A DNA stretch of 64,000 nt from a candidate division WWE3 bacterium RIFCSPHIGHO2_02_FULL_38_14 (GTDB lineage Bacteria > Patescibacteriota > WWE3 > UBA101185 > UBA10185), in NCBI GenBank assembly GCA_001772865.1, contig MEVD01000003.1, positions 62,812 to 126,811 of the forward strand, written 5' to 3'. Positions within the stretch are counted from its first letter, which is position 1, and the number at the start of each line of letters is the position of its first letter. Below are positions 25,068-49,991 of the stretch, piece after piece. The notes under the pieces are model-generated. The model was not told the origin of the DNA. It saw nothing but the letters and a program-made list of their open reading frames with translations, and ran no database searches. The position numbers and the translations under genes were made by a program.

Positions 25068-26186
25068 ATGAAGATTGTAATTGTAATACCAACATATAAC
25101 GAAGCTTTAAATATAGGAAGATTAATAGACTCATTAAATGAAGTTTTCAAGTTAAAACCTGACGAGGATTTTCATATTTTAATCGTAGATGCAAATTCTC
25201 CGGATGGAACCGCCGGGGTAGTAAAGCAGAAAATGGATACTTTTGGAAATGTTCATATTCTTATTGAGGAAAAGAAAGCCGGATTGGGTGCAGCATATAT
25301 TGCGGCTTTTAAATATGCTCTTCAAAACTTGAGTCCTGATGTAATAATGGAGATGGATGCAGATTTTCAGCATAATCCTGATGATTTGATGAAGATTGTC
25401 AATGAAATTCAGAACGGAAATGATTATGTAATCGGGTCCAGATTTACTGAGGGTGGAAGTATTCCAAAAGATTGGGCACTTTATAGAAAAATTCTAAGCT
25501 ATGGCGGAAATCTGTTCACAAAGCTTGTCTTAGGAATTTATCAGGTAAATGATTTTACCTCAGGATTTAAAGCTTCGAGAGTAAAAAACTTTGTGGACAG
25601 AATAGATTTAGTTTCTGTTTTATCCGGTGGCTTTGCTTATAAAATAGATCTTTTATTCAAAATGTACAAGCTGGGGGCGAAAATAAAAGAAGTTCCCATA
25701 ACTTTCGGACTGCGGGACAGGGGTGATTCCAAAATGGAGAGAAATAATTTTATCGATTCTCTTAGGGTGGTACTTTCAATCAGATATAATGAGAATTCCA
25801 GTTTTTTTAAATTTGCCTTGGTTGGATTTGTTGGATTGTTCGTTGACGGCGGATTGTTTAATATTTTAAGGCTTACACCCCTACGTTCAAGTTTAGCCAC
25901 ACCCGTGTCCGGTTTTATTGCTATGATGACTACTTATTTGTTGAATAATTACTGGTCGTTTTCCGACCGCAAAATAGATAGCATTAATAAAAAGCTGGTC
26001 GGGTTTATAGTTTATGTAATATCGTCTACAATACCAATATTAGTACGATCCAAGTTGGTCATTATTGCTACATCAGCATTCGGAGACACTTTTTTTGTTT
26101 CCAATACAGCGTTTTTTATTGGCATAGTTTTCGGTCTAGTGTGGAATTTCCTGGTTTATAGTAAAATAATCTGGAGAAAAAGGTAA
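25068..26186 (+). CDS. family 2 glycosyltransferase (polyprenyl-phosphate sugar synthase-like) fused to a GtrA-like membrane domain
   Basis: N-terminal GT-A (IVIPTYNE, DAN-SPDGT, EMDADFQH). C-terminal 4-TM GtrA-like region ending YLLNNYWSFSDRK. Confidence 0.8.
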   Translation: MKIVIVIPTYNEALNIGRLIDSLNEVFKLKPDEDFHILIVDANSPDGTAGVVKQKMDTFGNVHILIEEKKAGLGAAYIAAFKYALQNLSPDVIMEMDADFQHNPDDLMKIVNEIQNGNDYVIGSRFTEGGSIPKDWALYRKILSYGGNLFTKLVLGIYQVNDFTSGFKASRVKNFVDRIDLVSVLSGGFAYKIDLLFKMYKLGAKIKEVPITFGLRDRGDSKMERNNFIDSLRVVLSIRYNENSSFFKFALVGFVGLFVDGGLFNILRLTPLRSSLATPVSGFIAMMTTYLLNNYWSFSDRKIDSINKKLVGFIVYVISSTIPILVRSKLVIIATSAFGDTFFVSNTAFFIGIVFGLVWNFLVYSKIIWRKR

Positions 26187-26188
26187 TT

Positions 26189-26947
26189 ATGATTGAATAC
26201 TCTGTTGTAATACCGGCATTTAATGAAGCCGATAAAATAACAACTTCCCTTACTCAAGTGCTTTCTTATATGAGGTCCTTTTCTAACTCGTTTGAAGTAA
26301 TTATTGTAGACGACGGCAGTAAGGATAACACCGCTGACATAGTGGAGAAATATCTGGAAAGTAATTCCTGCCCGGAAATTAAGTTAATTAAAAATCCTCA
26401 TAAAGGTAAAGGACCGGCGGTATGGACAGGAGTTATGAATGCGGAAGGAGAATATATATATACGGCTGATGCAGACTTATCAACTCCTATGACAGAATTA
26501 AAAAAACTGAGTCTTTGGATTAAAGAACATAATTTCGACATAGTGATAGCATCTCGTGAAGGTGCAGGTGCTCAAAGAATTAATGAACCATTTTACAGAC
26601 ATCTGCTGGGAAGAGTGTTTAATTATGTTGTTCAATTATTTGCTCTTCCGGGGATTAGAGACTCCCAATGTGGGTTTAAATTATTCAAAAAAGAAGCAGC
26701 TAAAACTACATTCAAAAAACTTAAATTATATGGAGAAACTGCAAAAACAACAGATAAAGCGTACTTAGGAGCCTGGGATGTTGAGGTTTTATATTTAGCT
26801 AGGAAGCTGGGCTATAAAATCAAAGAAATACCTGTTACCTGGGTTTATGTAAAAACGACCCGTCTAAACCCATTTAAAGATTCACTTAAGATGCTTATGG
26901 ATGTAATGAGAGTTCGAATTAATTATTTAAAAGGGGTTTATAAGTAA
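26189..26947 (+). CDS. family 2 glycosyltransferase
   Basis: 252 aa. SVVIPAFNEADKI, IIVDDGSKDNT, TADADL. Confidence 0.8.
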   Translation: MIEYSVVIPAFNEADKITTSLTQVLSYMRSFSNSFEVIIVDDGSKDNTADIVEKYLESNSCPEIKLIKNPHKGKGPAVWTGVMNAEGEYIYTADADLSTPMTELKKLSLWIKEHNFDIVIASREGAGAQRINEPFYRHLLGRVFNYVVQLFALPGIRDSQCGFKLFKKEAAKTTFKKLKLYGETAKTTDKAYLGAWDVEVLYLARKLGYKIKEIPVTWVYVKTTRLNPFKDSLKMLMDVMRVRINYLKGVYK

Positions 26948-26994
26948 ACCTGATTTTTAGGATTGCCGGACAATATTGAAGGAGTATAAAAAGT

Positions 26995-27260
26995 ATGAAC
27001 TTATGTGTTATTAGGACAGGTTATGTCGGCCTTGTAGGGGCCGCTATTTTTGCCGAAAGAGAAAATAATGTTGCTGGAGTACGGTCTGCATATTGACTGA
27101 ATGGGACGAGTTTAAAGAACTGGATTTGGCTAGAACTAAATCTTTGATGAAAAAGCCCATTTTATTTGACGGAAGGAATTTGCTAAAACAAAAGGAGGTA
27201 GAGGGAGCAGGTTTCGTTTATTTCGCTTTCGGAAAAAAGATACGGAAGAAGCGGATATAA
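26995..27260 (+). pseudogene. ugd: UDP-glucose 6-dehydrogenase (ugd) remnant: N-terminal about 30 aa plus C-terminal about 53 aa, internal deletion and frameshift
   Basis: MNLCVIRTGYVGLVGAAIFAE is the Ugd N-terminal NAD-binding motif. After a TGA at 27094, a different frame reads EWDEFKELDL...KKPILFDGRNLL...GFVYFAFGKK, which is the Ugd C-terminus. The roughly 330-aa middle is missing. Confidence 0.7.
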
Positions 27261-27281
27261 TAAGAACAGCGGTGCTTCAGA

Positions 27282-29695: not shown

Positions 29696-29780
29696 AGTTT
29701 ATTTATGGTACTTAGTATGTTTAAAATACAATCAAAATTACTGATCCAGGAGTTTTAATTTATACTTTTATTAAAGAACT

Positions 29781-30986: not shown

Positions 30987-30988
30987 GT

Positions 30989-32533
30989 GTGCGTAACCTG
31001 TTTTTTCTTTCTATAGTTTCATTTATAGCCTTACATATTTTCCTGATTAATTTTAATTACGCGGAATGGGGGGATACTTACAGGATTCTGAGAGCTTCTG
31101 AATTTATAAGAAATCTTTCATACCCGGAAGATGAAAAAAGACCGCCATTATTTTCAGCGGTTTTGGCTGTCAGACCTGAAAATGTAGATCAGATATTTTG
31201 GGGCAGAGTGGTAATGTTTTTCATGTCGATATCTGCTTTTATTGTTTTTTTTAAACTGACAGAAATTTATTTGAAGTCGGATTTTGAAAAAGTTTTAGCA
31301 GTTATTTTATTTATCCTAAATCCCGTCTATTTATATTGGTCGATAAGAATTTATGCTGACGTTCCATTTAGTATTTTATGTATGCTGGCATTGCTTTTGT
31401 ATTCTAAATGGAGATTGACATTAAACTTGGCCAAAGTGTTCATCCTGTCACTGGTAGCCAGCATGGCAATTTTGACAAGATTTGAAGGTTTTATACTATT
31501 TGCCGCTTTAGGTGTAGCTTTATTGTTCAATGGACGCTTTCAATTTAAGATTCCGGATTTAAGTAGTTTAAACTTGAAGCAGTTTTTCATGTATTCATTT
31601 ACTACTATGATATTAACAATGCCCTATCTGGTTGTTAAAAATCCTCTTGATTCGAAATATTTAGAAGAAACTGCCGGCAGGTCTTATGACTTAAAAATGG
31701 TCGCTATATTCATGCTGTCGTTTTTATTTGTGCTTGGTTTAAATATGGCAGTTTATTTTTTTGTCAGATCCAAACGCAATTTATTCGGTTTTCTCAAAGA
31801 AAATATTCATATTTTTGCTTTTTTAATATTGGAAATGCTTCTGATTCTGGTTTGGCCGGCGGCTATTCCTAGGCTTTTTGTACCATTAATTCCCGTATTC
31901 ATCATACTTTTTTCAAAAGCAATAAATGATTATTATACTTCAGATGAGAGAGCTCCTAAGTTAATATTTTTTAGTTTAACAATATTATTATTGATTATTC
32001 ATTTGGCTGGCCAATATACTTTTCGACTTCAATTTCTGGTTAATATAAAGTATTTATTGACAGCAACAATATTACTACAATTGGCTGTTTCCGCAGTTTT
32101 ATATTTTAAAAAGAAATATATATTTCTAATGGTACTGGTCATAAGTTTGTCTGTATGGTCTTTAGGGGTTTTATATGTTCATAAAGACATTTACAGATCT
32201 ATAAAAGAGGCCTCTATTTATGCAGCAGAGAATTTTGAAGGAAATGTCGGTTATAACGATGTTAGCAGTATTAGCGATTGGTATTTAAATTATTATGACG
32301 GAGGAAAAAATAATACTGGAACATATCTGTATTACTCTAAAAAAGCCGATTTGAATTACGAAAATCTGACAAAAAAGAAATTAAGCTACCTTTTAATGAC
32401 GAATGAGCATAATACGGATACAACACTGGATATCGAGCAAAGACCTTATTTAAAGCAACTAAAGGAATTCAACTATATAATAAATAACAAAGAATTCTGG
32501 ACTAAGGTATTGGAGATTAAAGAAAATGAGTAA
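30989..32533 (+). CDS. polytopic membrane glycosyltransferase, GT-C (ArnT/PMT family-39-like)
   Basis: 514 aa, GTG start. Many TM helices. N-terminal loop with Asp/Glu after TM1 and a soluble C-terminal domain. Confidence 0.55.
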   Translation: MRNLFFLSIVSFIALHIFLINFNYAEWGDTYRILRASEFIRNLSYPEDEKRPPLFSAVLAVRPENVDQIFWGRVVMFFMSISAFIVFFKLTEIYLKSDFEKVLAVILFILNPVYLYWSIRIYADVPFSILCMLALLLYSKWRLTLNLAKVFILSLVASMAILTRFEGFILFAALGVALLFNGRFQFKIPDLSSLNLKQFFMYSFTTMILTMPYLVVKNPLDSKYLEETAGRSYDLKMVAIFMLSFLFVLGLNMAVYFFVRSKRNLFGFLKENIHIFAFLILEMLLILVWPAAIPRLFVPLIPVFIILFSKAINDYYTSDERAPKLIFFSLTILLLIIHLAGQYTFRLQFLVNIKYLLTATILLQLAVSAVLYFKKKYIFLMVLVISLSVWSLGVLYVHKDIYRSIKEASIYAAENFEGNVGYNDVSSISDWYLNYYDGGKNNTGTYLYYSKKADLNYENLTKKKLSYLLMTNEHNTDTTLDIEQRPYLKQLKEFNYIINNKEFWTKVLEIKENE

Positions 32534-33044
32534 GAGTGCATTGGATAAGGATTCAGATAATTTTCTAAATGTTTTAAAACTGATTTCTGACAGGATGAAT
32601 GGATTAATGTATGCTTTCAGAGGAACTGCCGGACTGGTTATACAGGGGTTGGAAATGAAAATGGAAGATATTGATATTGTATGCAGCAAAGATACAGCAG
32701 TTGCGTCAAATACTTTGTTTAAGGATTTTCTAAAAGAGAAAGTTGAGTATAAAATATCGGATAAATTTAAATCGTATTTTGGTAAATTTAATATAAAAGG
32801 AGTTTTGGTGGAAATTTACGGAGACTGGCAGATACTTGATGCCAAAGGGGTTTGGAGTAAAATCTTTGATGGAAGCGACCGAATTAAAGTAAAATTTAGA
32901 GGTGAGGATTTTTATGTAGTTCCAGCTGATACTGAATTGTTAATGTTTGCATTAATGGGAAGGTGGAGTGCGTTTCATAAAATAAAGAAGCAAGCTTCTT
33001 CTTTTCTCGCAGGAGAGAACTCCCGCTCCAAAATAAAAATATGA
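32526..33044 (+). CDS. hypothetical protein with minimal nucleotidyltransferase-fold motif
   Basis: 172 aa. GTAGLVIQGLEMKMEDIDIV fits the Pol-beta-like hG[GS]...[DE]h[DE]h motif. Translationally coupled (overlapping) with both neighbours. Confidence 0.35.
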   Translation: MSKSALDKDSDNFLNVLKLISDRMNGLMYAFRGTAGLVIQGLEMKMEDIDIVCSKDTAVASNTLFKDFLKEKVEYKISDKFKSYFGKFNIKGVLVEIYGDWQILDAKGVWSKIFDGSDRIKVKFRGEDFYVVPADTELLMFALMGRWSAFHKIKKQASSFLAGENSRSKIKI

Positions 33045-33733
33045 AGTTATCCGTAGTTATACCAGTTTATAATGAAAAAAACACAATACAAGAGATTGTG
33101 AAAATGGTTAAAAATGTTGAAATACCCGATGTAGAAAAAGAATTAATTCTCGTTGAAGACGGTTCTAAGGACGGTACTCTGGATATATTGAAAAAAATGA
33201 AAGAAGAGCAAAAAGATTTGAATGTTTATTTTCATAAGGTAAACAGCGGAAAAGGCGCATCGCTTCGTGACGGATTTAAGCTTTCCACTGGAGATTATGT
33301 AATTGTCCAGGATGCTGATTTAGAATACGATCCCCAAGATTATAAAAAGTTAATTAATGCTTTGAAAGATTATAATGCCAAAGTGGTTTATGGCTCCAGA
33401 TTTGCAGGAGATTATAAAGATATGACGAGCCTTCATTATATAGGTAACAAAGTTCTTACTTTACTTACAAATATTCTTTTCGGGGTTAAATTAAATGATA
33501 TGGAGACTTGTTATAAACTTATACCTGGAGATTTTATTAGAAAAATGAATATTAGGTCGAACCGTTTTAATTTCGAGCCCGAAATAACAGCTAAAATTCT
33601 TAAGTCAGGGATGAAAATAGTGGAAGTCCCGATTTCATATAAAGGACGTACATGGAGCGAAGGAAAAAAAATTACCTGGAAAGATGGGATTTCCGCGTTG
33701 CTGACTCTAATTAAATTCAGATTTTTAGATTGA
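33041..33733 (+). CDS. family 2 glycosyltransferase (polyprenyl-phosphate sugar synthase-like)
   Basis: 230 aa. SVVIPVYNE, LVEDGSKDGT, VQDADLEYDP. Confidence 0.8.
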   Translation: MKLSVVIPVYNEKNTIQEIVKMVKNVEIPDVEKELILVEDGSKDGTLDILKKMKEEQKDLNVYFHKVNSGKGASLRDGFKLSTGDYVIVQDADLEYDPQDYKKLINALKDYNAKVVYGSRFAGDYKDMTSLHYIGNKVLTLLTNILFGVKLNDMETCYKLIPGDFIRKMNIRSNRFNFEPEITAKILKSGMKIVEVPISYKGRTWSEGKKITWKDGISALLTLIKFRFLD

Positions 33734-33734
33734 T

Positions 33735-35897
33735 ATGCTTAAGAAAATTTTCGATAATTTTTTACTGATAATTATAATATTTTTTTCTATTGGAGTATTT
33801 CTCGTTAATTTGCGAATGAATATTTTCAGATACGAAAACTTTGACTTCGGTAAGTTTGATTTGGGGAATATGACACAAATGGTATGGAATACCTTAAACG
33901 GACGATTTATGTATTTAACCGATTATTTCGGTACAAACCTCCCAAGGTGGTCCATGAGCCACGTAGATCCTATTTTGGTTCTATTTGTTCCTACCTTTGC
34001 TTTATGGCAGCATTCTTTAAACTTAGTAATTTCTCAGCTGATCCTGGTTATTTTTAGTTCAGTTTTAATATTTAAAATTACCGAACACAAACTCAGATCA
34101 AAATTGGCTGCTTTCTTTTTTGGCCTTTCTTATCTATTTTATCCTGCTGTTGGCTATTTAACGGCCTGGACGGGTTTTCACGGCGTTACAGTTGCAATTC
34201 CGTTTTTCCTTGGAGCTGTATATGTTTTTGAAAGGATGTATAAGTCAAATAATTACCCGCGAAGAAATCTCGTTTTATTCTGGGTGCTATTAGTAGTTAC
34301 AATGATGGGAAAGGAACAGCTACCGTTATATGTGGCGCTGTATGGTATTTTTATAGTTTTATGCCGGTCGGGAATCTGGGACTTTTTAAAAGAAAAATCA
34401 AAACTAACCGAATTGAGTGCCATTGAGGTTTTAAAGATCCTGCTTTTATCTAAAAACGTAAAGCTGGGTTTAGGTGTTTTTAGCGCTGGTGTTCTGTGGT
34501 TTATAACCGCATTTTTTGTAATAATCCCTCTATTTGCCAAATACAGAATTGAAGGATTCGATAAATTTTCCAAGTCATTAGGTCTTGATACTGATATTGT
34601 TCGGGATGTTGCCAGACCAAACTATTTTATCAGCAGATACGAAGAATTTGGCGAATCTTATACTGAAGTATTTTTTAATTTGTTCATGGACCCCCAAAAA
34701 CTAGTGAGAGTAATATTTGGGGGTGATAGGGTAGATAATTTTAGGAAGACATTTGAGCCGCTGGGGTATCTGCCGTTTGCAAACCCTCTGTTTACTATGC
34801 TTGCTGTCCCTGATTTATTGATTAACTACTCTACTACGGCAGGAGGAATCGGAACTTCGGAAATTACCAATCACAGAATTTCCATGATAATACCGGTTCT
34901 CTTTATTTCAACTATTTATGCTGTCGGTTTTATTTCAAACTATTTGTCAGTACTTTTAGTTAAAATTAAAGTTACTCGTTCCTATTTAGTATTAGTTTTA
35001 AGTCTTTTTATTCTCTCTTTAAATGTTTGGAAGACATTTGAATATAATAACCCGGTTTATTTATGGATTACTCAAGCCGTCCAAAAAAGAATCAGTTCTG
35101 TAGCTTATGCAAAGGAAGATATGGAAACCGCTAGGAGTGATAAAGTAAAAGTCGGAGATGTTTTAAGACTCTCCAAGCTGGAAAATAAAGACAGAGAATG
35201 CGCGAATAAAATAATAAAAATGATTCCCGGAGATTCTTCTATTTCGGGGCCCGACTATTTAGGAGCCCATTTAGCCAAAAGAGAAACATACGCTATATTT
35301 CCGGCTTTATACAATGAAGCAGATTATGTAATAGTGGACGTCTTCTCTAAAAAAATATTGAATATCTTAGACGTTGATTTATCTCTGGTAAAAGATGTAA
35401 TAGAAGAACTAATCAAAAGCCCGAATTATAGATTGATGACCGGTTGCGGTAATTTATTTGTATTCAAAAACGTCGGAAATTACGGAAAAGAACAGCTGCT
35501 GCCCTTGCAGGAGAAATTCATTTATCCGGAAAAGTTCAATTACGAAATATTTTTGTCTTTACATATGGTTGACTATGACTATCCTTTGATATTAAAGCGC
35601 GGGGAAAGCGGTGATGCTAAGTTTGTTTATATAAAAAGAGAGGACTCTTCCATTGATGACTATGTGTTATTTTTAACTCTTATCAACGAAAACACAGGTG
35701 AAATATACCAAGTCGCCAACCTTCCGTCATTTGCTATAAAACAGCTTCGGGACTGGAAAGAGGATATTTATTATGAAGAAACTATTGATATAACCCTTCC
35801 CGGATATTTGGATCCGGGCTCCTATAAAGTATTCGTGGGAATGTCGAATATTATAAGGACTAGGAGTATTTATTTGGGGGATATTGAAGTATTATGA
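33735..35897 (+). CDS. large integral membrane protein (DUF2079-like N-terminus; possible GT-C) with C-terminal soluble domain
   Basis: 720 aa. N-terminal FDFGKFDLGNMTQMVW...SMSHVDPIL motif block; at least 10 TM helices; soluble C-terminal third. Confidence 0.45.
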   Translation: MLKKIFDNFLLIIIIFFSIGVFLVNLRMNIFRYENFDFGKFDLGNMTQMVWNTLNGRFMYLTDYFGTNLPRWSMSHVDPILVLFVPTFALWQHSLNLVISQLILVIFSSVLIFKITEHKLRSKLAAFFFGLSYLFYPAVGYLTAWTGFHGVTVAIPFFLGAVYVFERMYKSNNYPRRNLVLFWVLLVVTMMGKEQLPLYVALYGIFIVLCRSGIWDFLKEKSKLTELSAIEVLKILLLSKNVKLGLGVFSAGVLWFITAFFVIIPLFAKYRIEGFDKFSKSLGLDTDIVRDVARPNYFISRYEEFGESYTEVFFNLFMDPQKLVRVIFGGDRVDNFRKTFEPLGYLPFANPLFTMLAVPDLLINYSTTAGGIGTSEITNHRISMIIPVLFISTIYAVGFISNYLSVLLVKIKVTRSYLVLVLSLFILSLNVWKTFEYNNPVYLWITQAVQKRISSVAYAKEDMETARSDKVKVGDVLRLSKLENKDRECANKIIKMIPGDSSISGPDYLGAHLAKRETYAIFPALYNEADYVIVDVFSKKILNILDVDLSLVKDVIEELIKSPNYRLMTGCGNLFVFKNVGNYGKEQLLPLQEKFIYPEKFNYEIFLSLHMVDYDYPLILKRGESGDAKFVYIKREDSSIDDYVLFLTLINENTGEIYQVANLPSFAIKQLRDWKEDIYYEETIDITLPGYLDPGSYKVFVGMSNIIRTRSIYLGDIEVL

Positions 35898-37387
35898 AAG
35901 AACTTACCAAATGGCAGATCATAAGTTTTTTTTCCCGCGGCGCAGCTATGGCGTTGGGCATTTTTCAGAGCTTTTTCATTGTCCGGTTGCTGACTGTCGG
36001 TGAGTATGGGGTTGTTCAACTGGCGGCTTCTATCGGCGGGGCTTTCGGTATTTATCAGCACTTAGGACTTGCTTCGGGGAGTACCAGAGAAATATCGGCG
36101 GCAAAAGACGACACCGAAATTTTTAAAATTTTTATTACTGCCTTAGTTATTAGGTATGTAGTTACCATTCCGCTGGTACTGTTTCTTTTCTTCTCAGCCA
36201 ATAGCTTAGCGGTTGACACATATAATGATGAGTCATTGATACTCCCGATTAAGATCTATGCTCTGGTATTATTATTTCAAGGTGTACAGAGCATTCTTAA
36301 TTCGGTAATATCCGGAACAAAAAGATTTAAGCATTTATTTCTGTTTCAGTCGGGAATAGCAGTTGTCAGTGTTCTGATTTTTATTCCTCTGGTATATTAT
36401 TATAGTGTTAATGGGTATTTTTACGCTCTGGCTTTTTTTAATTTGATTTCTTCTACAATACTCTCATATTTGGCGTTTAAACCTTTAAGAGGAAAATTGG
36501 TTTTTCCGAGTAAAAGCGATTTCAAGGCATTGTTAAAAGAATTGCTTTCTATCAGCCTGGCGATATATTTTGTAAAGATTCTTTATACGTGGTGGGAAAA
36601 GTCGGGACCTCTGCTTTTAGGTTTGGAAGTATCTAAAGAAACTGTAGGTATTTTTGCATTTGGATTGCTTTATGCAAAAAAACTCATGAATATTTCCGAC
36701 GCAGTGACTGATGTTAATCTTCCAGTTCTGTCGGAAAAATTTGTGAAGGATACAGCAGCGTTTAAAGAAATTTTCAGTAGTAATTTTAATAAAATATATA
36801 TTCTGATCATTTTTGTAGCCGCAAGTGCTGTTTACTGGAGCAAGGATGTAATAACTCTTTTAGTTGGAGGGAATAAATATGATGAATCTTTTCCTTATGT
36901 TCTGCCGTTGGTTTTCGCTTTTGTATTTTATTCATTTATAAATATTATTAAGTCGTCTGTCATAGTTCCGGCTAAGCTGGTAAAAGAACTTATTGCGAGC
37001 TTTGTGGTGCTTTTAGTTGGTACGGTTTTGTTTTTTATTTTGACTAATGAGAACCTTGGTAGTCTTTCTTCTATGTCTTATGCAATGTTAATTGGAGCAG
37101 CTCTAAGTACCGGATTTATGGTTATTATTTCACAGTTCAAATTAAAATTTAAATTTATTACACACGACCATTTTCTATTGATGATTCAGGGATTTACAAT
37201 CGCCTGGGTAGGTGCAGGATATGTTTTATTAAGTGGCCAACCTGCCAGTTTGATTTTAAAAGCCGTCTTATACGTTATATTTATGCTACTATTGTTTTTT
37301 GGCGCGCGAATATCCAATTTTATTTCCAAAGAAGATTTGGAATTTGCTGTTAACATATTTAATAAAATAAACGAAAAAATTAAATAA
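35894..37387 (+). CDS. MOP-superfamily polysaccharide/oligosaccharide flippase (Wzx-like)
   Basis: 497 aa, about 12-14 TM. Polysaccharide-biosynthesis-protein-like topology. Confidence 0.65.
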   Translation: MKELTKWQIISFFSRGAAMALGIFQSFFIVRLLTVGEYGVVQLAASIGGAFGIYQHLGLASGSTREISAAKDDTEIFKIFITALVIRYVVTIPLVLFLFFSANSLAVDTYNDESLILPIKIYALVLLFQGVQSILNSVISGTKRFKHLFLFQSGIAVVSVLIFIPLVYYYSVNGYFYALAFFNLISSTILSYLAFKPLRGKLVFPSKSDFKALLKELLSISLAIYFVKILYTWWEKSGPLLLGLEVSKETVGIFAFGLLYAKKLMNISDAVTDVNLPVLSEKFVKDTAAFKEIFSSNFNKIYILIIFVAASAVYWSKDVITLLVGGNKYDESFPYVLPLVFAFVFYSFINIIKSSVIVPAKLVKELIASFVVLLVGTVLFFILTNENLGSLSSMSYAMLIGAALSTGFMVIISQFKLKFKFITHDHFLLMIQGFTIAWVGAGYVLLSGQPASLILKAVLYVIFMLLLFFGARISNFISKEDLEFAVNIFNKINEKIK

Positions 37388-37388
37388 T

Positions 37389-38180
37389 ATGACTTCAAAA
37401 AATGCCTTCGATATAATGAAAGATCAAATAAGGGATAAATATGAAGGAGATCCAGAGTGGAAAGCCGAGTCGGATCGACTTTTTGGTCCTGAGGAAGCTT
37501 CTGCGCTGTGGCATGAATTGGAAAAATCTCATATAATTCCGGAGCCGGAAGCTGATGTAAATATTGTGAGTGTTTCCGCGAACATACCCACTCATGAGTT
37601 AGCGATGTTTAAGGCTGATTTGTTAACCAGAAAGGGTAAAAGCAGATTCGTTATTGGAGATATTTCTGAATTAAGAGTTAAGACATTTATAGATGAATTG
37701 GTTGAACCATATACAACATTCAGAAATAGATTTGCGTATATAAGGTGGGATGCATATAATTTACCGGTTCCGGATAGTTCTGCTGATGTTATATTTGATA
37801 GGAAAGGAGCTCTTTGGCATATTGCTCATAATTATAGGGATACCCAAAAACTTATTGAAACCTTTAAGGAATATCATAGAATACTTAAACCGGGTGGTAG
37901 TTTAGTTGTAGATAATATTGGCGGTTTTGAGGCATATTTAAAAGGGCTTTCACGAGAGCGTCAATTAGAAATAGCTTTAAAGACTTTATCAGGAATACGT
38001 TTTTCAGATATCTATCCTGATGCTCCTATGCAGTACGAGCCTTCAACAATAGATAAAATTAGAACACTAGCCCTTGCTGTGTCAGATAATACGGAATTAA
38101 TAATAACTATTGAAGATCTTTTCGAAATTCAAGACATTGGTGAAGGAGCGTTATCAGTAAAAATATTTACTAAAAAGTAA
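37389..38180 (+). CDS. hypothetical cytoplasmic protein (possible SAM-MTase-like fold)
   Basis: 263 aa, soluble. VIGDISEL...ILKPGGSLVVDN is weakly methyltransferase-like. Confidence 0.3.
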   Translation: MTSKNAFDIMKDQIRDKYEGDPEWKAESDRLFGPEEASALWHELEKSHIIPEPEADVNIVSVSANIPTHELAMFKADLLTRKGKSRFVIGDISELRVKTFIDELVEPYTTFRNRFAYIRWDAYNLPVPDSSADVIFDRKGALWHIAHNYRDTQKLIETFKEYHRILKPGGSLVVDNIGGFEAYLKGLSRERQLEIALKTLSGIRFSDIYPDAPMQYEPSTIDKIRTLALAVSDNTELIITIEDLFEIQDIGEGALSVKIFTKK

Positions 38181-38274
38181 GTATATTCTGGAAAGTAATG
38201 ACCAAAGAAATTAAATGGTTAATATAATGATACAAATATTTGAAAAAAACTGTGCAATCATTTAAGCTATTTTT

Positions 38275-41344: not shown

Positions 41345-42969
41345 TAACTGTTAAACTGAAATTACTTAAATGGGAACTTGCCGCTGTATTTTTTATTTTT
41401 CTTTTTTCCAGGATGCCATATTTGGGGTTTGATACGTTTAATACTGATGTCTGGAAGTGGAAGTCCAGGATTTATGATTTCGGAACCGGAGTATTTACTT
41501 TAAATTTTGAAAAAACTATTCAAAAATACCACCCTGGAGTTACTTTAATGTGGATCGGATCAGGCGCGGTGAAAGTATACAATTTTTATTACGAAACAGT
41601 TAGAAAGGTTTTGCCTCCCGACAATGATGTCCAGACAATTTTTGAATTGAATTTTGTCCAGAAGCTTTTTATTGTTATTTTTTTGGGAGTAATTTTAACT
41701 TCGATTTATTATGTTCTGGGGAATATGTTTGGAAGGCGGTATGCGGTAATTGTATTTGCGCTGATTGTGTTTGACCCCTTTTACACGGCATTATCAAGGG
41801 AAATTCATTTAGAAGGACTGCTTTCAACATTAATGCTGGGGTCGTTTTTGTGGTTTTATTATTATCTTGAAAATACCAAAGATTCTTCAAGATTTGTAAT
41901 ATCGGGAGTTTTAGGAGCTTTAGCAGTTTTAACCAAAACAACAGCCGCATTTATTGTTCCGTTTTCCTTTATATTGGCTTTTGTATTTTATTACTTACAT
42001 AATAAAAGACTTCAGGATTCACTTAAACTGGCTTTGACGCCTTTTTACAAGTGGCTGATGGTTTTTACTACCTGCTTTATTTTGTTTTGGCCGGCAATGT
42101 GGGTAATGCCTGAACAGGCACTGCAGTCACTGGTTAAAGGAGTTTTTGACGTTGGAATAGAAGAAGGACACGAGCAGCTGTATTTTGGCCGCTTGGTTGA
42201 GGATCCAGGACCAGTTTATTATTTAGTAGTTTTTGCTTTTCGAAGCTCTATTTTGCTGGTAATAGGTGTTTTTGGATTTTTAATATTTTCCAGAAAATCT
42301 TACAACTCCGAAACTAAAAAGTTTATATTTATTTCGCTGTTGTATTCAATTTTATATTTGGTTGAAATTACCCTGCCTTCTAAAAAACTGGACCGGTATA
42401 TACTTCCGGGTATGCTTGGTTTAATGCTGACCGCCGGGTTTTTTTATGACTGGCTGTTGGGAAAGTTAAAAAGTTTTCACAACTTTGCATTTTTATGGAT
42501 ATTTCTGCCTTCATTTATTTTATTCGTCCAATTGGTCCCGGACTATTTTTCGTATTATAATCCTATGCTGGGAGGGTTACCTAAAGGAATTTTCGTTTTA
42601 GAACCGAAATGGATGATCGGGCAAAAGCAGATTCAAAATTATTTCTCCGCCCTCAAAGAAAAAGAAAAGCTTATAAATTTCGGAAATAATGAATCTTTGG
42701 ATTCAGCTATTATGAAACCGGATATTAATACAAGATTGACGGTTGGATTTCAGGAAAAATATTATACACAAATACATCCGTTTATAAATGTAATAGGAGG
42801 TAGGGCGGTAATACAGGACCTGACTCCCCACGCAGTTCGGACAAAATATTTTGTATATCCGGTTTGGGATGATAAATCTAAAGAAGAAAACAGATTTAAA
42901 TTAAAATATCTGGATTCGATTTTTTTAAGAAATGTTGAAATTTACAGAGTTTATGCCAGAACCAATTAA
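41341..42969 (+). CDS. GT-C membrane glycosyltransferase (ArnT/PMT-like), paralog B
   Basis: 542 aa. Shares YHPGVTLMWI and PSKKLDRYILP with the 38275 gene. Confidence 0.65.
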   Translation: MITVKLKLLKWELAAVFFIFLFSRMPYLGFDTFNTDVWKWKSRIYDFGTGVFTLNFEKTIQKYHPGVTLMWIGSGAVKVYNFYYETVRKVLPPDNDVQTIFELNFVQKLFIVIFLGVILTSIYYVLGNMFGRRYAVIVFALIVFDPFYTALSREIHLEGLLSTLMLGSFLWFYYYLENTKDSSRFVISGVLGALAVLTKTTAAFIVPFSFILAFVFYYLHNKRLQDSLKLALTPFYKWLMVFTTCFILFWPAMWVMPEQALQSLVKGVFDVGIEEGHEQLYFGRLVEDPGPVYYLVVFAFRSSILLVIGVFGFLIFSRKSYNSETKKFIFISLLYSILYLVEITLPSKKLDRYILPGMLGLMLTAGFFYDWLLGKLKSFHNFAFLWIFLPSFILFVQLVPDYFSYYNPMLGGLPKGIFVLEPKWMIGQKQIQNYFSALKEKEKLINFGNNESLDSAIMKPDINTRLTVGFQEKYYTQIHPFINVIGGRAVIQDLTPHAVRTKYFVYPVWDDKSKEENRFKLKYLDSIFLRNVEIYRVYARTN

Positions 42970-44251
42970 GGATGTAATTTATATGGAAAGAATTAAAGCA
43001 GTATTAAAAGACCAAACAGTTTCGGGAACTATTGTAGTTACAACAGGATTGTTTGTTTCTTCAATTTTCAGTTATTTTTTGCAGTTTTCGCTGGGACGTT
43101 TTTTACCGGTCAGGGAGTACGGTGATTTTAACGCTTTATTGTCTGTTTATTATATTGTTGGAGTTCCGTCGACAGTATTAGGAATTTCTATAATAAAAGT
43201 AGTTTCGGAACTCAAAGCAGAAAAAGAACATGAAAAGGTTTCGGGATTGTTCTGGAATTTAAGCTTATTTTCTCTTATTTTCGGTGCGGTTTTGGCAGCG
43301 GTATTTTTAATATTACAAAAAAATATCGGATCGTATTTAAATATTACGGACGGAACAGTATTAAAAATTTACTCTGCATTGATAATGCTATCCTTTTTAT
43401 CTCTTATACCTCAGTCTTTTTTACAGGGTCTGTTAAAATTTAACTCTTATGCATTTTTTGTAGTTATTCTCGGACTTCTCCGACTTGTAATTCCGGTATT
43501 ATTTGTAATAGTAGGTTATGGGGTAGCCGGGGCTTATGGGGGTATTTCAATAGTTATAGTACTGACTTACTTTATATCACTCCTTCTTCTTAGATCGGAT
43601 TTTGTAATTAAAGTTCATAGAATTTCATTTAATAAATACTATAAAAGAATACTGACATTTTCCGCTTCGGTTTTGCTGGTAAACCTTGCACTTATGATGC
43701 TGAATAATATAGACGTTTTGCTGGTAAAACGGTTTTTTCTGCCCGAAGTGGCCGGTTACTACGCCGGTGTTGTAACTGTAGGAAAAATTCTGCTTTTTGG
43801 AGCGGGCACTGTTTCAGTGGTTATGTTTCCTCAGATTTCCCAGGCGCATATAAAAAATCAAAATGTTTATGAAAAACTGAAAAAATTTCTCGCACTTCAA
43901 CTTATTATTGTAATTTTGGGATTGGTTGTATTCAGTGTGTTTCCGAAATTGATTGTACGAATTATGTTTGGCAATCCTTTTTTGCCGACAGTACCTTTTA
44001 TACCGTCTTTTGCAATATTTATGTGCCTGTATGTTTTAATAACTTTTATGGTTAATTTTTTCCTCGCTGTTAATCAAACCAAAGTTTTTCTTTTTCTGCT
44101 TCCGGCAGTTACAGTTCAGTTTATTGCATTGAATATATTTAACGACTCGCTATTTACAATAATAAGAGTTAATATATCAGTTGCAGCGATGCTCCTGATA
44201 GCACTATTTGTATTTGGCTATTGGATTAAGCAAAGTGAGACAAGTAAATAA
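42932..44251 (+). CDS. MOP-superfamily flippase (Wzx-like), second copy
   Basis: 439 aa polytopic, with similar architecture to the 35894 gene. Confidence 0.6.
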   Translation: MLKFTEFMPEPIKDVIYMERIKAVLKDQTVSGTIVVTTGLFVSSIFSYFLQFSLGRFLPVREYGDFNALLSVYYIVGVPSTVLGISIIKVVSELKAEKEHEKVSGLFWNLSLFSLIFGAVLAAVFLILQKNIGSYLNITDGTVLKIYSALIMLSFLSLIPQSFLQGLLKFNSYAFFVVILGLLRLVIPVLFVIVGYGVAGAYGGISIVIVLTYFISLLLLRSDFVIKVHRISFNKYYKRILTFSASVLLVNLALMMLNNIDVLLVKRFFLPEVAGYYAGVVTVGKILLFGAGTVSVVMFPQISQAHIKNQNVYEKLKKFLALQLIIVILGLVVFSVFPKLIVRIMFGNPFLPTVPFIPSFAIFMCLYVLITFMVNFFLAVNQTKVFLFLLPAVTVQFIALNIFNDSLFTIIRVNISVAAMLLIALFVFGYWIKQSETSK

Positions 44252-44274
44252 TATAGATTCAAAATAAATTTAAA

Positions 44275-45087
44275 ATGGCTAGAAAATTAGTATCAATAAT
44301 TGTACCCGCCTATAAAAAACAAGACACTATAAAACACGATATAGAAAACATATATGATGCTATGTGCCAGAGCAGATGGGACTTTGAAATTATTGTAGTG
44401 GTTGATGGTTTTGTTGATAGTACCTTTAAGCTGGCAAAAGAACTGGAAAAGAATGTTATTAGGGTGTTCGGGTATAAGACAAATAGAGGAAAAGGGTATG
44501 CTGTGAAATACGGAATGGCCAGAGCATTAGGGGATTATTTGGCTTTTATCGACGCGGGATTGGAAATAAATCCGAATGGAATTTCAATGATATTAGAACA
44601 TATGGAATGGTATGATGCGGATATTATTGTAGCCAGTAAACGACATCCGGTATCTAAAGTTCATTATCCTTTTACGAGAAAGTTATACAGCTGGGGATAC
44701 TTTACAATTATAAAATTATTATTTGGAGTAAAAGTACGCGATACCCAGACCGGTTTAAAAGTATATAGAAGAGAAGTACTGGAAGCGGTTATTCCCAGGC
44801 TGGTAATTAAAGAGTATGCCTTTGATATTGAATTACTGGCGGTGTCACACTATTTAGGATTCAGGAGAATATATGAAGCACCTGTCGAAGTGAAGTTTGA
44901 TTTTACTACTTCAAGAATTAAAGGATTTTTGATTTTTGATGAGTTTATCAGGAGAATGCTTCACGACACATTTGCGATATTTTACAGAATGCATATACTT
45001 AAGTATTACCACGATAATAATAAAAGGAAATGGGTTTATGATAAGGAATTGGAGATGCAGTTAAATACTGGTGAATCGGAAAAATAA
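44275..45087 (+). CDS. family 2 glycosyltransferase
   Basis: 270 aa. SIIVPAYKKQD, VVVDGFVDST, IDAG..; DxD context. Confidence 0.8.
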   Translation: MARKLVSIIVPAYKKQDTIKHDIENIYDAMCQSRWDFEIIVVVDGFVDSTFKLAKELEKNVIRVFGYKTNRGKGYAVKYGMARALGDYLAFIDAGLEINPNGISMILEHMEWYDADIIVASKRHPVSKVHYPFTRKLYSWGYFTIIKLLFGVKVRDTQTGLKVYRREVLEAVIPRLVIKEYAFDIELLAVSHYLGFRRIYEAPVEVKFDFTTSRIKGFLIFDEFIRRMLHDTFAIFYRMHILKYYHDNNKRKWVYDKELEMQLNTGESEK

Positions 45088-45100
45088 AATTATTAAGTCT

Positions 45101-46111
45101 ATGAAATTCAGCATAATTATTCCGGTCAGGTCTATAAACGATCATTTAAGAGAAAATATTGCGAATTTAAAACTGTTAAAATATGAAGATTTTGAAGTGA
45201 TTATCCTTACCGATAACACCGAATCTTATGATTTCGGCGACGGCAGGTTTAAACTGTTGGCTACGGGAAGTGTGGGTCCGGGAGAAAAAAGAAATGTCGG
45301 AGCGAATACTTCAACCGGCGATATTCTGGCTTTTCTGGACGATGATGCTTATCCCAAAGACGACTGGCTGAATAAAGCTTACGAAATATTTAAAGATAAG
45401 AGTATATATGCTCTTGGGGCACCGGCTATTACACCATTAAATGCCGGTTTTCTTGAAAGATGTTCGGGGAGGGTGTTGGAGTCGATTCTTTCTAGCGCTG
45501 GTACTGTTTACAGGTACGTGCCAATGTCTCGCAGAATTATTAACGATTATCCCACTGTAAACTTTTTGGTAAAAAAAGAAGCATTTTTGAGTGTGGGAGG
45601 ATTTATAAAAGATTTTTGGCCGGGAGAAGATACCAAACTATGTCTGGATTTAATTAATAAATTTGGAAAGGAGTTTATTTATGACCCTGCGCTTATTGTT
45701 TATCATCACAGAAGAAACTTATTCAGACCGCATTTAAAACAAATTTCAAGGTACGGTCAGCACCGCGGGCACTTCGCGAGAATATTTCCTGAAAATTCCA
45801 GGAATCCTTCATATTTTGTTCCATCTTTGTATATTTTGGGACTTGTGGCCGGACCGTTAGTATGTTTATTGATTCCTATTTTGTGGTTTGTTTATTTACC
45901 GGTTGTACTTATATATTTTATGTTAATATCGATTGAGGTTGTTCGTGTTTCAATAAAAGACAAATCTTTAAAAGTAGGGTTATATGTTGCCGGAGGGATA
46001 GTTTTAACACACATAGTTTATGGTGTAAACTTTATTATTGGATTATTGAAAAAGCCGGAATTGAAATTGAAAAAATTCGGGGGTAAGGCCGGGAATTACG
46101 TAGAAGGTTAA
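45101..46111 (+). CDS. family 2 glycosyltransferase with C-terminal TM helices
   Basis: MKFSIIIPV start at ATG 45101. LDDDAYP (DxD). Three or four C-terminal TM helices. Confidence 0.75.
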   Translation: MKFSIIIPVRSINDHLRENIANLKLLKYEDFEVIILTDNTESYDFGDGRFKLLATGSVGPGEKRNVGANTSTGDILAFLDDDAYPKDDWLNKAYEIFKDKSIYALGAPAITPLNAGFLERCSGRVLESILSSAGTVYRYVPMSRRIINDYPTVNFLVKKEAFLSVGGFIKDFWPGEDTKLCLDLINKFGKEFIYDPALIVYHHRRNLFRPHLKQISRYGQHRGHFARIFPENSRNPSYFVPSLYILGLVAGPLVCLLIPILWFVYLPVVLIYFMLISIEVVRVSIKDKSLKVGLYVAGGIVLTHIVYGVNFIIGLLKKPELKLKKFGGKAGNYVEG

Positions 46112-46455: not shown

Positions 46456-46456
46456 T

Positions 46457-47443: not shown

Positions 47444-47449
47444 AAATCT

Positions 47450-49983: not shown

Positions 49984-49991
49984 TCTCGATT

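Follow-up and report, generated by a model that had tools for sequence, protein, structure and literature searches.

Results

Gene content of the conserved part

The window, a 64,000-nucleotide stretch of DNA from a bacterium of the uncultured candidate division WWE3 (Patescibacteria) from the Rifle aquifer, carries a run of glycosyltransferase genes directly 3' of the ribosomal genes L15-secY-adk-map. Every ORF of at least 80 aa between 20 and 64 kb was scanned with Pfam, and TM topology was taken from a crude hydropathy (KD) scan and two AF2 models. The first part of the run, module A, contains the following features.

u1, 23824..24771, + strand: CAP/YkwD-domain membrane protein (Pfam CAP, E 3e-19; NCBIfam YkwD family below cutoff)
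u2, 24782..25039, +: 85-aa protein with 3 TM segments (KD scan)
g1, 25068..26186, +: DPMS-type polyprenyl-phosphate hexose synthase (Pfam GT2 and GtrA_DPMS_TM)
g2, 26189..26947, +: small soluble DPMS/ArnC-like GT2 (Pfam, PDB)
ugd, 26995..27233, +: remnant of a UDP-glucose 6-dehydrogenase gene with an internal deletion (tblastn)
g3, 27282-28499, +: cytoplasmic GT4 (GT-B; Pfam Glycos_transf_1/Glyco_transf_4)
g4, 28496-29695, +: cytoplasmic GT4 (same basis)
g5, 29781-30986, +: cytoplasmic GT4 (same basis)
g6, 30989..32533, +: GT-C (GT39/ArnT-like) transferase (homologs)
g7, 32526..33044, +: 172-aa lineage-specific protein (weak DUF4269 match only)
g8, 33041..33733, +: small soluble DPMS/AglJ-like GT2 (PDB, NCBIfam)
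g9, 33735..35897, +: DUF2079 GT-C with a C-terminal beta-sandwich domain (Pfam DUF2079, 108.6 bits)
g10, 35894..37387, +: Wzx/MOP-family flippase (Pfam Polysacc_synt_3, 71.7 bits; Polysacc_synt, 50.6 bits)
g11, 37389..38180, +: lineage-specific SAM methyltransferase (Pfam)
g12, 38275-39879, +: PMT_2/PMT-type GT-C (Pfam; paralogy to g14)
g13, 39863-41344, +: PMT_2/PMT-type GT-C (Pfam)
g14, 41341-42969, +: PMT_2/PMT-type GT-C (Pfam)
g15, 42932..44251, +: second Wzx/MOP-family flippase (Pfam)

All these genes lie on one strand with tight or overlapping junctions, from which we infer that they form one operon; it is spacing that defines it, because promoter and terminator scans of the locus gave results no better than chance.

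The conserved first gene after adk/map is u1, which precedes g1 in 49 related loci, with u2 between the two in 49 loci. A preliminary description of this DNA had placed a DUF2304-like peptide beside a GT2. The u2 family never matches DUF2304; 27/35 weakly match DUF5656, at its C-terminus. By analogy with GacJ, u2 is a candidate membrane partner of soluble GT2s.

Residues 1-346 of g1 align with the Pyrococcus DPMS (PDB 5mlz; E 1.3e-40). What had been taken for a fusion to a GtrA flippase is, on this alignment, the 4-TM domain that DPMS-type synthases natively possess, and g1 is by sequence a full enzyme of this type, with a GT2 catalytic domain and the 4-TM domain. The other two synthase-like GT2s match more weakly: g2, for which the KD scan gives no TM segment, at E about 2e-15 with 5mlz and ArnC, and g8 at E 8e-15 with 5mlz over residues 1-209. 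The DXD motifs of g1 (D97/D99, kept in 50 orthologs), g2 (D94/D96) and g8 (D91/D93) are conserved in 50-64 orthologs. AglJ is the best NCBIfam match of g8, at 114.6 bits and below cutoff; NCBIfam equivalog matches are all far under their curated cutoffs, so that sugar and acceptor specificity are not assignable from them.

The ugd remnant retains segments corresponding to aa 1-29 (72% identity) and aa 385-432 (56%) of the intact Ugd of two related loci, L042 and L049 (tblastn). An intact Ugd is found at the same position in 36/41 relatives. As the gene is degraded here while the rest of the operon is intact, the ancestral product may have changed. The adjacent cytoplasmic GT4 genes g3-g5 (27282-30986), missed by the preliminary description, have one-to-one orthologs in 61-69 loci, and their NCBIfam and PDB matches are to generic GT4s. 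Three GT4s, together with the Ugd gene of the relatives, point to a cytoplasmic assembly stage that had been overlooked.

Assignment to the GT-C class is based on Pfam for g9, g13, g14 and g23, on homologs for g6, on paralogy for g12 (30% identical to g14 over 455 aa), and on fold for g9 and g31. An acidic residue right after TM1 is kept in each of them: D34 in g12, D35-E36 in g13, D36 in g14, and an invariant E26-W-G-D29 in g6. The g6 protein has no Pfam match itself; of its more than 268 homologs (40-49% identity), many have PMT_2/PMT matches and are named GT39/ArnT. In g9, D42, D63 and D78 are invariant. The 12 best Foldseek matches of its AF2 model (pLDDT 84) are all STT3, DPY19, AglB or PglB (E 6e-6 to 2e-3), and its C-terminal domain resembles the glycan-binding one of Wzt. 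In this model the beta-sandwich is possibly glycan-binding; large GT-Cs bearing carbohydrate-binding domains act on polymers (PMC8035078).

Both Wzx-like flippases of the preliminary description are supported by Pfam, g10 being polytopic with orthologs in 56 loci. In most relatives (29/41) the slot of g11 is occupied by a PF03706 (MprF-flippase-like) gene (LPG_synthase_TM, E 1e-45).

Variable part and module B

The variable part begins at g16/g17.

g16, 44275-45087, +: DPMS-like GT2, with DAG replacing DAD (Pfam, PDB, motif)
g17, 45071-46111, +: GT2 with a C-terminal TM hairpin (Pfam, PDB, motif)
Variable linker, 46189..51828, mixed strands: ferredoxin, GH42-like protein, methyltransferase (-), g21 (-), GC-rich block, B12-radical SAM enzyme (Pfam)
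g21, 48300-49040, -: GT2 (Pfam)
Module B, 51870..63785, +: g23-g31
g23, 51870-54164: YfhO-like GT-C (Pfam YfhO/PMT_2)
g24 to g27: DUF4012-like protein, dehydratase, DegT aminotransferase, NTP-transferase
g28, 58475-59488: GT2 (Pfam)
g29 and g30: GT4-like protein (-), FkbM methyltransferase
g31, 61599-63785: orphan GT-C (fold)

Adjacency of g15 and g16 is seen in a single related locus (L065), and g17 has no ortholog in the related loci. Beyond the window end lies a gene for an AftD-like GT-C.

From 25 to 64 kb, Pfam together with homology or fold gives 7 GT2s, 7 GT-Cs and 2 Wzx/MOP proteins; 25068-46111 alone holds 5 GT2s (g1, g2, g8, g16, g17), 5 GT-Cs (g6, g9, g12, g13, g14) and both flippases. 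About seven polyprenyl-P-sugar synthase-type GT2s had been claimed: the number stands for the GT2s of the whole stretch of about 40 kb, but only five are synthase-like, since DPMS/ArnC/GtrB is the best solved-structure match for g1, g2, g8 and g16 only, g21 is counted through its paralogy to g2 (33% identity), and g17 and g28 are not synthase-like. The upper figure of four to seven GT-Cs likewise holds only over the whole stretch. Each polytopic non-Wzx protein classifies as a GT-C, none as a transporter or Wzy.

Conservation across WWE3

We found 73 related loci, 41 of them at least 21 kb long. Thirty-two of these 41, from other WWE3 species, share the exact 13-gene order; each gene has a single ortholog there (40-65% identity), and catalytic motifs are kept. 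Downstream of secY-adk, the conserved order is u1-u2-g1-g2-(ugd)-g3-g4-g5-g6-g8-g9-g10-g12-g13-g14-g15. The core ends at g15, which comes after g14 in every related locus with a long enough flank; g7 is present in 1/73 loci, and the sub-block g6-g8-g9-g10 is retained even in the most distant ones. A gene order shared by dozens of species is clustering far beyond chance. Cross-species synteny at this identity indicates a housekeeping operon and not an island, and on this comparative evidence the 23.8-44.3 kb region is such an operon in candidate division WWE3. The composition is native as well (GC 0.34 versus 0.36 in the window), so the term 'island' has to be dropped. Nor is the density of GT-C genes exceptional, as had been proposed: it is a hallmark of the lineage, with about 9 of them within 21 kb in one distant locus.

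This conservation bears on a conventional Wzx/Wzy locus for capsule, EPS or an O-antigen-like polymer, in which the polymerase and initiator would be divergent or encoded elsewhere and the GT-Cs would decorate the product. Two Wzx proteins, GT4s and GT2s, nucleotide-sugar enzymes and methyltransferases are what such loci usually contain. However, hypervariability is typical of capsule and O-antigen loci, in contrast to the one-to-one conservation of g1-g15 across species at 40-65% identity. Moreover, ORFs from 20 to 64 kb gave no match to Pfam models of Wzy, Wzz, Bac_transf or MraY/WecA, in agreement with the preliminary description. Nor were Wzy, Wzz or a phosphoglycosyltransferase matched by the extra ORFs of relatives that were checked with Pfam (2 recurrent inserts and 10 from divergent loci); they encode Ugd, PF03706 proteins, additional PMT-type GT-Cs or housekeeping proteins. 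The sole candidate for a cryptic Wzy, g6, is by its homologs a protein of GT39/ArnT type. We therefore consider this reading very unlikely.

Discussion

A probable lipid-carrier-based assembly line

What we observe are the classes and folds of the enzymes, their conserved catalytic residues, the gene order and its conservation. The classes fit the donor logic proposed earlier, in which lipid-linked sugars are made inside, flipped, and used outside by GT-Cs, and we think it fairly probable that the operon assembles an envelope glycan in three stages, based on lipid carriers. It weighs against this reading that the scans revealed neither an initiating enzyme nor an acceptor. At the cytoplasmic face, g3-g5, fed by Ugd in most relatives, would assemble a glycan primer that is attached to a membrane lipid. 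In parallel, g1 and the soluble g2 and g8, perhaps assisted by u2, would load polyprenyl phosphate with single sugars; alternatively, like AglG/I/E, g2 and g8 could extend an oligosaccharide on its lipid. Then g10 and g15 would flip the lipid-linked intermediates outward, with the PF03706 protein additionally at work in most relatives. Classically, Wzx flips polyprenyl-PP-oligosaccharides, which makes the substrates of g10 and g15 uncertain. At the outer face, the non-redundant g6, g9, g12, g13 and g14 would extend the glycan stepwise from polyprenyl-P donors. Donors, order of action, flippase substrates and acceptor are what we infer. Module B (51.9-63.8 kb) appears separable: g25-g27 would make an NDP-amino-deoxy sugar, which g28 probably loads on polyprenyl-P and g23 and g31 would transfer outside.

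Could the pathway serve protein glycosylation instead (of the S-layer or pilins, the target preferred in the preliminary description, or of sortase-anchored proteins), with a glycan made on the lipid carrier and then transferred to protein by the PMT-like g13, the OST-like g9, or both? The former scores above the Pfam PMT cutoff (49 versus 22.7 bits) and keeps D35-E36, the latter is structurally closest to STT3, AglB, PglB and DPY19, and the gene content parallels the Haloferax Agl cluster for S-layer N-glycosylation. Genes for large surface proteins, sortase and type IV pili are also present in WWE3 genomes (PMC3812714). On the other hand, the WWDYG motif of oligosaccharyltransferases occurs in none of the GT-Cs here, STT3 models match weakly and below threshold, and the g9 C-terminal domain is glycan-binding-like in the AF2 model. 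In addition, neither the window nor the conserved flanks contain a gene for an S-layer protein, a pilin or another candidate acceptor, and five non-redundant GT-Cs exceed the needs of known protein O-glycosylation systems. A dedicated system of this kind thus seems rather unlikely to us, and a protein O-glycosylation branch through g13 may exist.

Comparison with known systems

Gram-positive bacteria have multi-component transmembrane glycosylation systems such as CsbB/GtcA/YfhO, GtlA/GtlB and GacI/GacJ/GacK/GacL (PMC8035078). In them, as proposed here, a GT-A (GT2) enzyme produces the polyprenyl-P-sugar, a flippase carries it across the membrane, and outside the sugar is transferred by a PMT_2/YfhO-type GT-C. 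In the Gac system a soluble GT-A works with a small TM protein, and the flippase GacK is of Wzx type, a precedent for such a flippase serving a polyprenyl-P-sugar system (PMC8035078). The genes might be a set of independent three-component systems (GT2, flippase and GT-C, as in Gtr, CsbB-YfhO and Arn), each adding one sugar to a different envelope molecule that already exists, with no single pathway. The component classes match, and module B, whose g23 and g28 fit the pattern best, resembles a self-contained unit and recurs without module A. However, the Gram-positive systems, each with a single GT2 and a single GT-C, modify a polymer that is already there, whereas module A brings together 3 synthase-like GT2s, 5 GT-Cs, 2 Wzx and 3 GT4s, numbers that do not pair. 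It also lacks a stand-alone GtrA-type flippase, and Pfam shows no likeness of u2 to DUF2304/GacJ. That 13 genes are conserved together in a fixed order, with g6-g8-g9-g10 kept even in the most distant loci, argues for one pathway, and separate decoration systems are unlikely. The Arn pathway modifies lipid A with L-Ara4N; ArnA, ArnD, ArnE and ArnF are absent here, and g28 matches ArnC only in the generic N-terminal half.

Mycobacterial LM/LAM and arabinogalactan are built by PimA/PimB GT4s, the GT2 Ppm1 and PimE/Mpt/Emb/Aft GT-Cs. The likeness to the assembly line proposed here lies in cytoplasmic GT4 lipid priming, flipping, stepwise outside extension from polyprenyl-P-sugars by many non-redundant GT-Cs, and the clustering of several GT-C genes; structural matches of g31 and g9 include AftB, AftA, AftD, Emb and PimE. 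In contrast, sequence-level orthology is lacking, genes of the DPA pathway (UbiA/DprE1) were not seen, the flippases are of the MOP family instead of ABC or GtrA-type transporters, and the organism is a Patescibacterium of about 0.9 Mb. Eukaryotic ALG follows similar steps: cytosolic GT4-type mannosyltransferases, flipping, then the luminal GT-Cs ALG3/9/12/6/8/10, with donors from the GT2s DPM1 and ALG5. Here the likeness is in fold and logic only (9-13% identity), and ALG7/ALG13/14-type initiation and an STT3-type transferase are absent from the WWE3 locus. The Haloferax volcanii Agl cluster (PMC3871713) shares AglJ/AglD-like GT2s, the Wzx-like AglR, the Dol-P-Man-dependent GT-C AglS, the Ugd AglM and the methyltransferase AglP. 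AglJ is the best NCBIfam match of g1 as of g8, with weaker matches of g12 and g14 to Agl23 and of g4 to Agl16, all far below cutoffs. Still, AglB/STT3 with WWDYG is missing here, and GT4s and five GT-Cs are foreign to the Agl pentasaccharide route.

Abundant glycosyltransferases and an incomplete identifiable peptidoglycan pathway have been noted in WWE3 (Kantor 2013, PMC3812714). The organism has no LPS genes and no lipid A pathway (PMC3812714), and lack of LPS genes makes the earlier term 'periplasmic' doubtful. The product that we favour is a glycopolymer anchored to the wall or to a lipid, comparable to LM/LAM, arabinogalactan or secondary cell wall polysaccharides. The chief new result is that the operon is conserved gene for gene across WWE3 and is not strain-specific; most likely, it builds a complex surface glycan on the outward-facing side of the cell membrane.

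Gene content of the window

Beyond 23.8 kb, nearly all genes of the window lie on the forward strand, with tight or overlapping junctions between them. The window is laid out as follows.

First 24 kb: rpoB-rpoC, EF-G, EF-Tu and a ribosomal-protein cluster, ending with L15, SecY, a YbaB-like gene, Adk and Map
23.8-44.3 kb: module A, comprising u1 (a CAP-domain membrane protein), u2 (a small membrane protein) and genes g1 to g15
44.3-51.8 kb: a stretch between the two modules
51.9-63.8 kb: module B, genes g23 to g31

Pfam models were run on all ORFs of at least 80 aa between 20 and 64 kb. Within positions 25068-46111, they identified five GT2 glycosyltransferases (g1, g2, g8, g16 and g17), three GT4 glycosyltransferases (g3, g4 and g5), two Wzx/MOP flippases (g10 and g15) and two methyltransferase or unknown genes (g7 and g11); five polytopic membrane proteins (g6, g9, g12, g13 and g14) are also encoded there. 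Downstream of 46111 lie the GT2s g21 and g28, the YfhO/PMT_2-like g23, the nucleotide-sugar enzymes g25 to g27, methyltransferases, a B12-radical SAM enzyme, and g31, a 728-aa membrane protein without Pfam match. The totals given in the preliminary description (seven GT2s, up to seven GT-C membrane transferases and two Wzx flippases) are correct for the whole 40-kb stretch, the three GT4 genes having been overlooked. Comparison of g3 to g5 with the PDB gave generic GT4 matches, and nothing more specific. The two flippases are well supported: against Polysacc_synt_3 and Polysacc_synt, whose cutoffs are 23 and 28.2, g10 scores 71.7 and 50.6 bits and g15 58.1 and 53.5 bits, and both are polytopic in a TM scan.

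A conventional Wzx/Wzy locus is an unlikely description of this region. As had been noticed initially, Wzy, Wzz and an initiating phosphoglycosyltransferase are missing: no ORF of at least 80 aa between 20 and 64 kb matched a Wzy, Wzz, WbaP-type or WecA/MraY-type model, and Wzy, Wzz/PCP and the initiating phosphoglycosyltransferase were also absent from the extra ORFs checked in related loci. For such a locus, the region is moreover far too conserved, as described below.

Conservation across WWE3

Proteins g6, g9 and g31 have counterparts of 100% identity in candidate division WWE3 bacterium RIFCSPHIGHO2_12_FULL_38_15, and the same gene cluster is present on Rifle and other groundwater contigs. 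A scan of the GTDB species representatives with the g6 family yielded 73 loci, almost all from WWE3/Patescibacteria MAGs, complete genomes included. When all window proteins were searched in these loci, exactly one ortholog each of u1, g1 to g6, g8 to g10 and g12 to g14 was found wherever the flanks reach, and this also holds for g15 and the small u2. The orthologs are 40 to 65% identical to the window proteins, and keep the DXD and loop-1 acidic motifs. Counts of gene order were restricted to the 41 loci that are 21 kb or longer: the exact order is found in 32, and adk lies directly upstream in 24. An intact UDP-glucose dehydrogenase gene (ugd) is present between g2 and g3 in 36 of the 41, and a PF03706 gene (LPG_synthase_TM, MprF-flippase-like) between g10 and g12 in 29 of them (for example, at 15668-16555 of locus L049).

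The cluster had been presented as an island. Its GC content is 0.344, versus 0.359 for the window, and no integrase or transposase was found by Pfam among the ORFs of at least 80 aa between 20 and 64 kb. Given this native composition and the synteny of g1 to g15 in relatives, the part from g16 on being variable, we reject acquisition as an island by horizontal transfer. Native composition and conserved order together mark the 23.8-44.3 kb segment as a housekeeping operon conserved in the WWE3 lineage; its operon structure is deduced from gene spacing. Nor is the density of GT-C genes exceptional, as was first thought: about nine GT-Cs are found in 21 kb of locus L075. Since distant loci contain even more PMT-type genes, a high GT-C density is rather a trait of the lineage. 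In the distant Patescibacteria concerned (L075, OZ246395.1; L074; L077), the kernel g6-g8-g9-g10 alone is kept, amid extra PMT/PMT_2 genes.

Lineage-specific changes and boundaries of the operon

Two genes, g7 and g11, are lineage-specific. Between g2 and g3, a gap of 335 bp contains a ugd remnant (26995-27233), of which amino acids 1-29 and 385-432 are left. As the gene is intact in 36 of the 41 relatives, the lineage has lost, or relocated, the UDP-glucuronate supply of the pathway. The slot of the PF03706 gene, which is absent here and in the RAAC2 clade, is occupied by the SAM methyltransferase gene g11 (37389-38180). The product of the PF03706 gene may provide the pathway with a third flippase.

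On its upstream side (20431-25068), the glycan operon lies directly 3' of L15-SecY-YbaB-like-Adk-Map. In bacteria, the expected continuation here is infA-rpmJ-rpsM-rpsK-rpsD-rpoA-rplQ, which is not seen. The best promoter-like site of the region (23788-23816, 11 of 12 matches) is situated just before u1; promoter and terminator scans gave counts no better than those of shuffled sequences.

The variable stretch starts at g16 and extends over 44.3-51.8 kb. This linker contains genes for a small 4Fe-4S ferredoxin (46189-46455) and a B12-binding radical SAM enzyme (50137-51828), and three methyltransferases (g20, g30 and g11) are encoded near these two. Such a combination hints at methylated or otherwise modified sugars.

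The linker also includes a sharply bounded block (49200-50010) of 50 to 60% GC, versus 25 to 35% in its flanks. It contains one 256-codon frame that is interrupted by just two TGA codons (49480 and 49735) and ends with TAA. Three other assemblies from this population carry the block at 99% identity. The block has no match in Pfam or Rfam and contains no tRNA, its RNA folding z-score is just -1.5, which is not convincing, and a repeat search returned nothing informative, only one inverted pair and two short direct repeats of two copies each. Candidate readings of the block are a gene that is foreign or pseudogenised, a recoded fragment and an unknown RNA.

GT2 enzymes and the small membrane protein u2

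All seven GT2s contain the Glycos_transf_2 domain. A DAD motif is present in g1, g2, g8 and g21, and is conserved across orthologs for the first three. The assignment of GT2s as polyprenyl-P-sugar synthases holds best for g1, whose residues 1-346 align with the dolichol-P-mannose synthase of Pyrococcus (5mlz, E = 1.3e-40). This alignment includes the 4-TM domain, so that what had been taken for a fusion to GtrA is the native architecture of a DPMS-type synthase. The assignment is weaker for the GT2s g2, g8, g16 and g21, in which a hydropathy scan detected no TM segment: over the catalytic domain, the best solved relatives of g2, g8 and g16 are DPMS, ArnC and GtrB (E from 1e-13 to 1e-15), and g21 is 33% identical to g2. 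It does not extend to g17 and g28, which end with a C-terminal TM hairpin and whose matches are confined to generic GT2 N-terminal halves. The best NCBIfam leanings of the GT2s are towards AglJ, PgfS, ArnC and PpgS; as all NCBIfam matches are far under the curated cutoffs, no specificity can be named. In the DPMS-like g16 (44275-45087), DAG replaces DAD at the canonical metal-binding DXD position; this paralog may be inactive or altered in its catalysis.

The peptide next to a GT2 that had been called DUF2304-like is u2 (24782-25039), an 85-aa protein with three TM segments, conserved between u1 and g1 in 49 loci, with Y46, H53, E67 and Y68 invariant. None of 35 members of its family matches DUF2304 at E ≤ 1, and 27 of the 35 weakly match DUF5656, the resemblance being to the C-terminal part of DUF5656. 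We propose that u2 may be a membrane partner of the soluble GT2s.

GT-C membrane transferases

All seven polytopic proteins (g6, g9, g12, g13, g14, g23 and g31) belong to the GT-C superfamily, in agreement with the preliminary description; the assignment comes from Pfam, homologs, paralogy or fold, depending on the protein. Four of them exceed Pfam cutoffs: g13 (PMT/PMT_2), g14 (PMT_2), g9 (DUF2079) and g23 (YfhO). The clear paralogy of g12 with g14 (30% identity over 455 aa, E = 3e-34) brings in a fifth. The 514-aa g6 has no Pfam match itself, and has more than 268 homologs, 40 to 49% identical, which do match PMT_2/PMT and go by the family names GT39 or ArnT. With such homologs, the idea that g6 is a cryptic Wzy was rejected.

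Topology was deduced from a simple hydropathy scan, which gave many TM segments in all seven proteins, and from AlphaFold2 models of g9 and g31, both with an N-terminal helical membrane domain of about 430-450 residues. In a Foldseek search of the PDB with the g9 model (pLDDT 84, pTM 0.80), the 12 best matches were all GT-C enzymes (STT3, DPY19, AglB and PglB; E from 6e-6 to 2e-3), and we show here, on this predicted structure, that DUF2079 has a GT-C fold. The C-terminal beta-sandwich of g9 is similar to the glycan-binding C-terminal domain of Wzt. An acidic residue expected in the loop after TM1 of GT-C enzymes is kept across orthologs in six of the proteins; for g23, the motif comes from one sequence.

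Acidic residues of loop 1, after TM1, in the GT-C proteins (at least 95% conserved or invariant, except for g23, a single sequence)
g6: E26/D29
g9: D42/D63/D78
g12: D34
g13: D35-E36
g14: D36
g31: D35-E36
g23: motif FGDS

The PMT domain of g13 (PF02366) scores 49.2 bits for a cutoff of 22.7, and its D35-E36 pair is conserved in 42 orthologs, which makes g13 a candidate GT39 protein O-mannosyltransferase. Against STT3 models, g13 stays under the cutoffs (22.1 bits versus 24.5 for STT3, and 21 versus 450 for archaeo_STT3), and the likeness of g9 to STT3 is confined to fold. A motif search found no WWD-type (WWDYG) motif in any of the seven GT-Cs; therefore, none is a canonical oligosaccharyltransferase.

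In profile comparisons, the g6 family shows no similarity to g31 and g9, and a marginal match to g13. PDB sequence-profile searches with the g31 and g9 families returned nothing. The g31 family, which is not detected by sequence profiles of other GT-C families, has 24 cluster representatives among 1.84 billion.

Module B

In other Patescibacteria, g31 homologs adjoin genes for YfhO, DUF4012, a GT2 of about 335 aa, DegT, an NTP-transferase, epimerases, an epimerase-GT2 fusion and an AftD-like GT-C, and this set of genes also fills 51.9-63.8 kb of the window. Past the window end, as seen in locus L084 (12184-17741), the genes encode an RmlD-GT2 fusion (673 aa) and a 1179-aa AftD-like GT-C, followed by unknown membrane proteins and a short-chain dehydrogenase. 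The AftD-like protein is the eighth GT-C within about 52 kb.

Judged from its sequences, module B is a separable unit predicted to make and transfer an amino-deoxy sugar, and it resembles both the CsbB-YfhO and the Arn systems. The question arises as to whether the whole region is a series of independent three-component decoration systems. Such a scheme fits module B, but not module A, the genes of which are jointly conserved and numerically unpaired.

A possible pathway for module A

For module A, the analysis shows the enzyme classes and their folds, catalytic residues that are conserved, and the order and conservation of the genes; the following steps are inferred. At the cytoplasmic face, the GT4s g3 to g5, with Ugd in relatives, would build up a primer glycan on a membrane lipid, while g1, g2 and g8 would make polyprenyl-P-monosaccharides. 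The intermediates would be flipped by g10 and g15, probably joined by the PF03706 protein in relatives. Outside, the five non-redundant GT-Cs would extend the glycan stepwise. That five different GT-Cs are each conserved one to one speaks for a defined product with multiple linkages, and not for redundant decoration, while the glycan-binding-like domain of g9 and the number of GT-Cs favour a polymer or lipoglycan as acceptor. A protein branch could be added by the PMT-like g13.

The best overall analogies to module A are the assembly of mycobacterial LM/LAM and arabinogalactan, and the ALG pathway of the ER. Soluble GT-As with a small partner and a Wzx-type flippase, as proposed here, have a precedent in GacI/J/K/L, where a soluble GT-A and its small membrane partner act with a Wzx-type flippase in a C55-P-sugar system (PMC8035078). 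The unusual pieces of module A have another in the Agl cluster of Haloferax, which includes the GT2s AglJ and AglD, the Wzx-like AglR, the GT-C AglS, the Ugd AglM and a methyltransferase (PMC3871713).

This Agl-like gene content, together with the PMT-like g13 and the OST-like fold of g9, makes it possible that module A is instead a dedicated protein glycosylation system; against this stand the lack of an OST motif and of a nearby acceptor gene. At its most ambitious, the scheme of a stepwise extended envelope glycan would make g1 to g15 the principal wall or envelope polymer pathway of WWE3, of ER/archaeal or mycobacterial style, substituting for or dominating peptidoglycan, with the DUF2079 protein g9 as terminal en-bloc transferase or polymerase, the g31 family as an unrecognised GT-C class, and the position at the ribosomal/SecY operon reflecting an essential, growth-coupled role. 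We consider this extended version improbable.

Significance

In the complete RAAC2 genome of WWE3, peptidoglycan synthesis was reported to be incomplete, and among the four candidate-phylum genomes compared, WWE3 alone was without a complete identifiable peptidoglycan pathway; the same authors noted abundant glycosyltransferases, and suggested polysaccharides, glycoproteins or a glycosylated S-layer (Kantor et al. 2013, PMC3812714). Beyond this general remark, we found no account of the operon, of DUF2079 or of the g31 family in the literature on glycosyltransferases of Patescibacteria, WWE3 or Katanobacteria and on DUF2079. The biochemical logic is already known; new variations on it are a multi-GT-C operon that is conserved, the placing of this operon behind the ribosomal cluster, and an orphan GT-C family.

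As most CPR/Patescibacteria are uncultured, next to nothing is known about their envelope chemistry. Since their way of life is attachment to other cells, glycans at the surface are probably what mediates that attachment, as well as phage or host recognition. An operon adjoining ribosomal genes, with five GT-Cs, three polyprenyl-P-sugar synthase-like GT2s and two MOP flippases, whose 13 to 15 genes are kept gene for gene across the whole class, offers a concrete and testable handle on a core envelope glycan. The locus also yields well-aligned families for orphan enzymes (DUF2079 and g31), and provides a bacterial point of comparison for the evolution of multi-GT-C pathways such as LAM/arabinogalactan, Agl and ALG.
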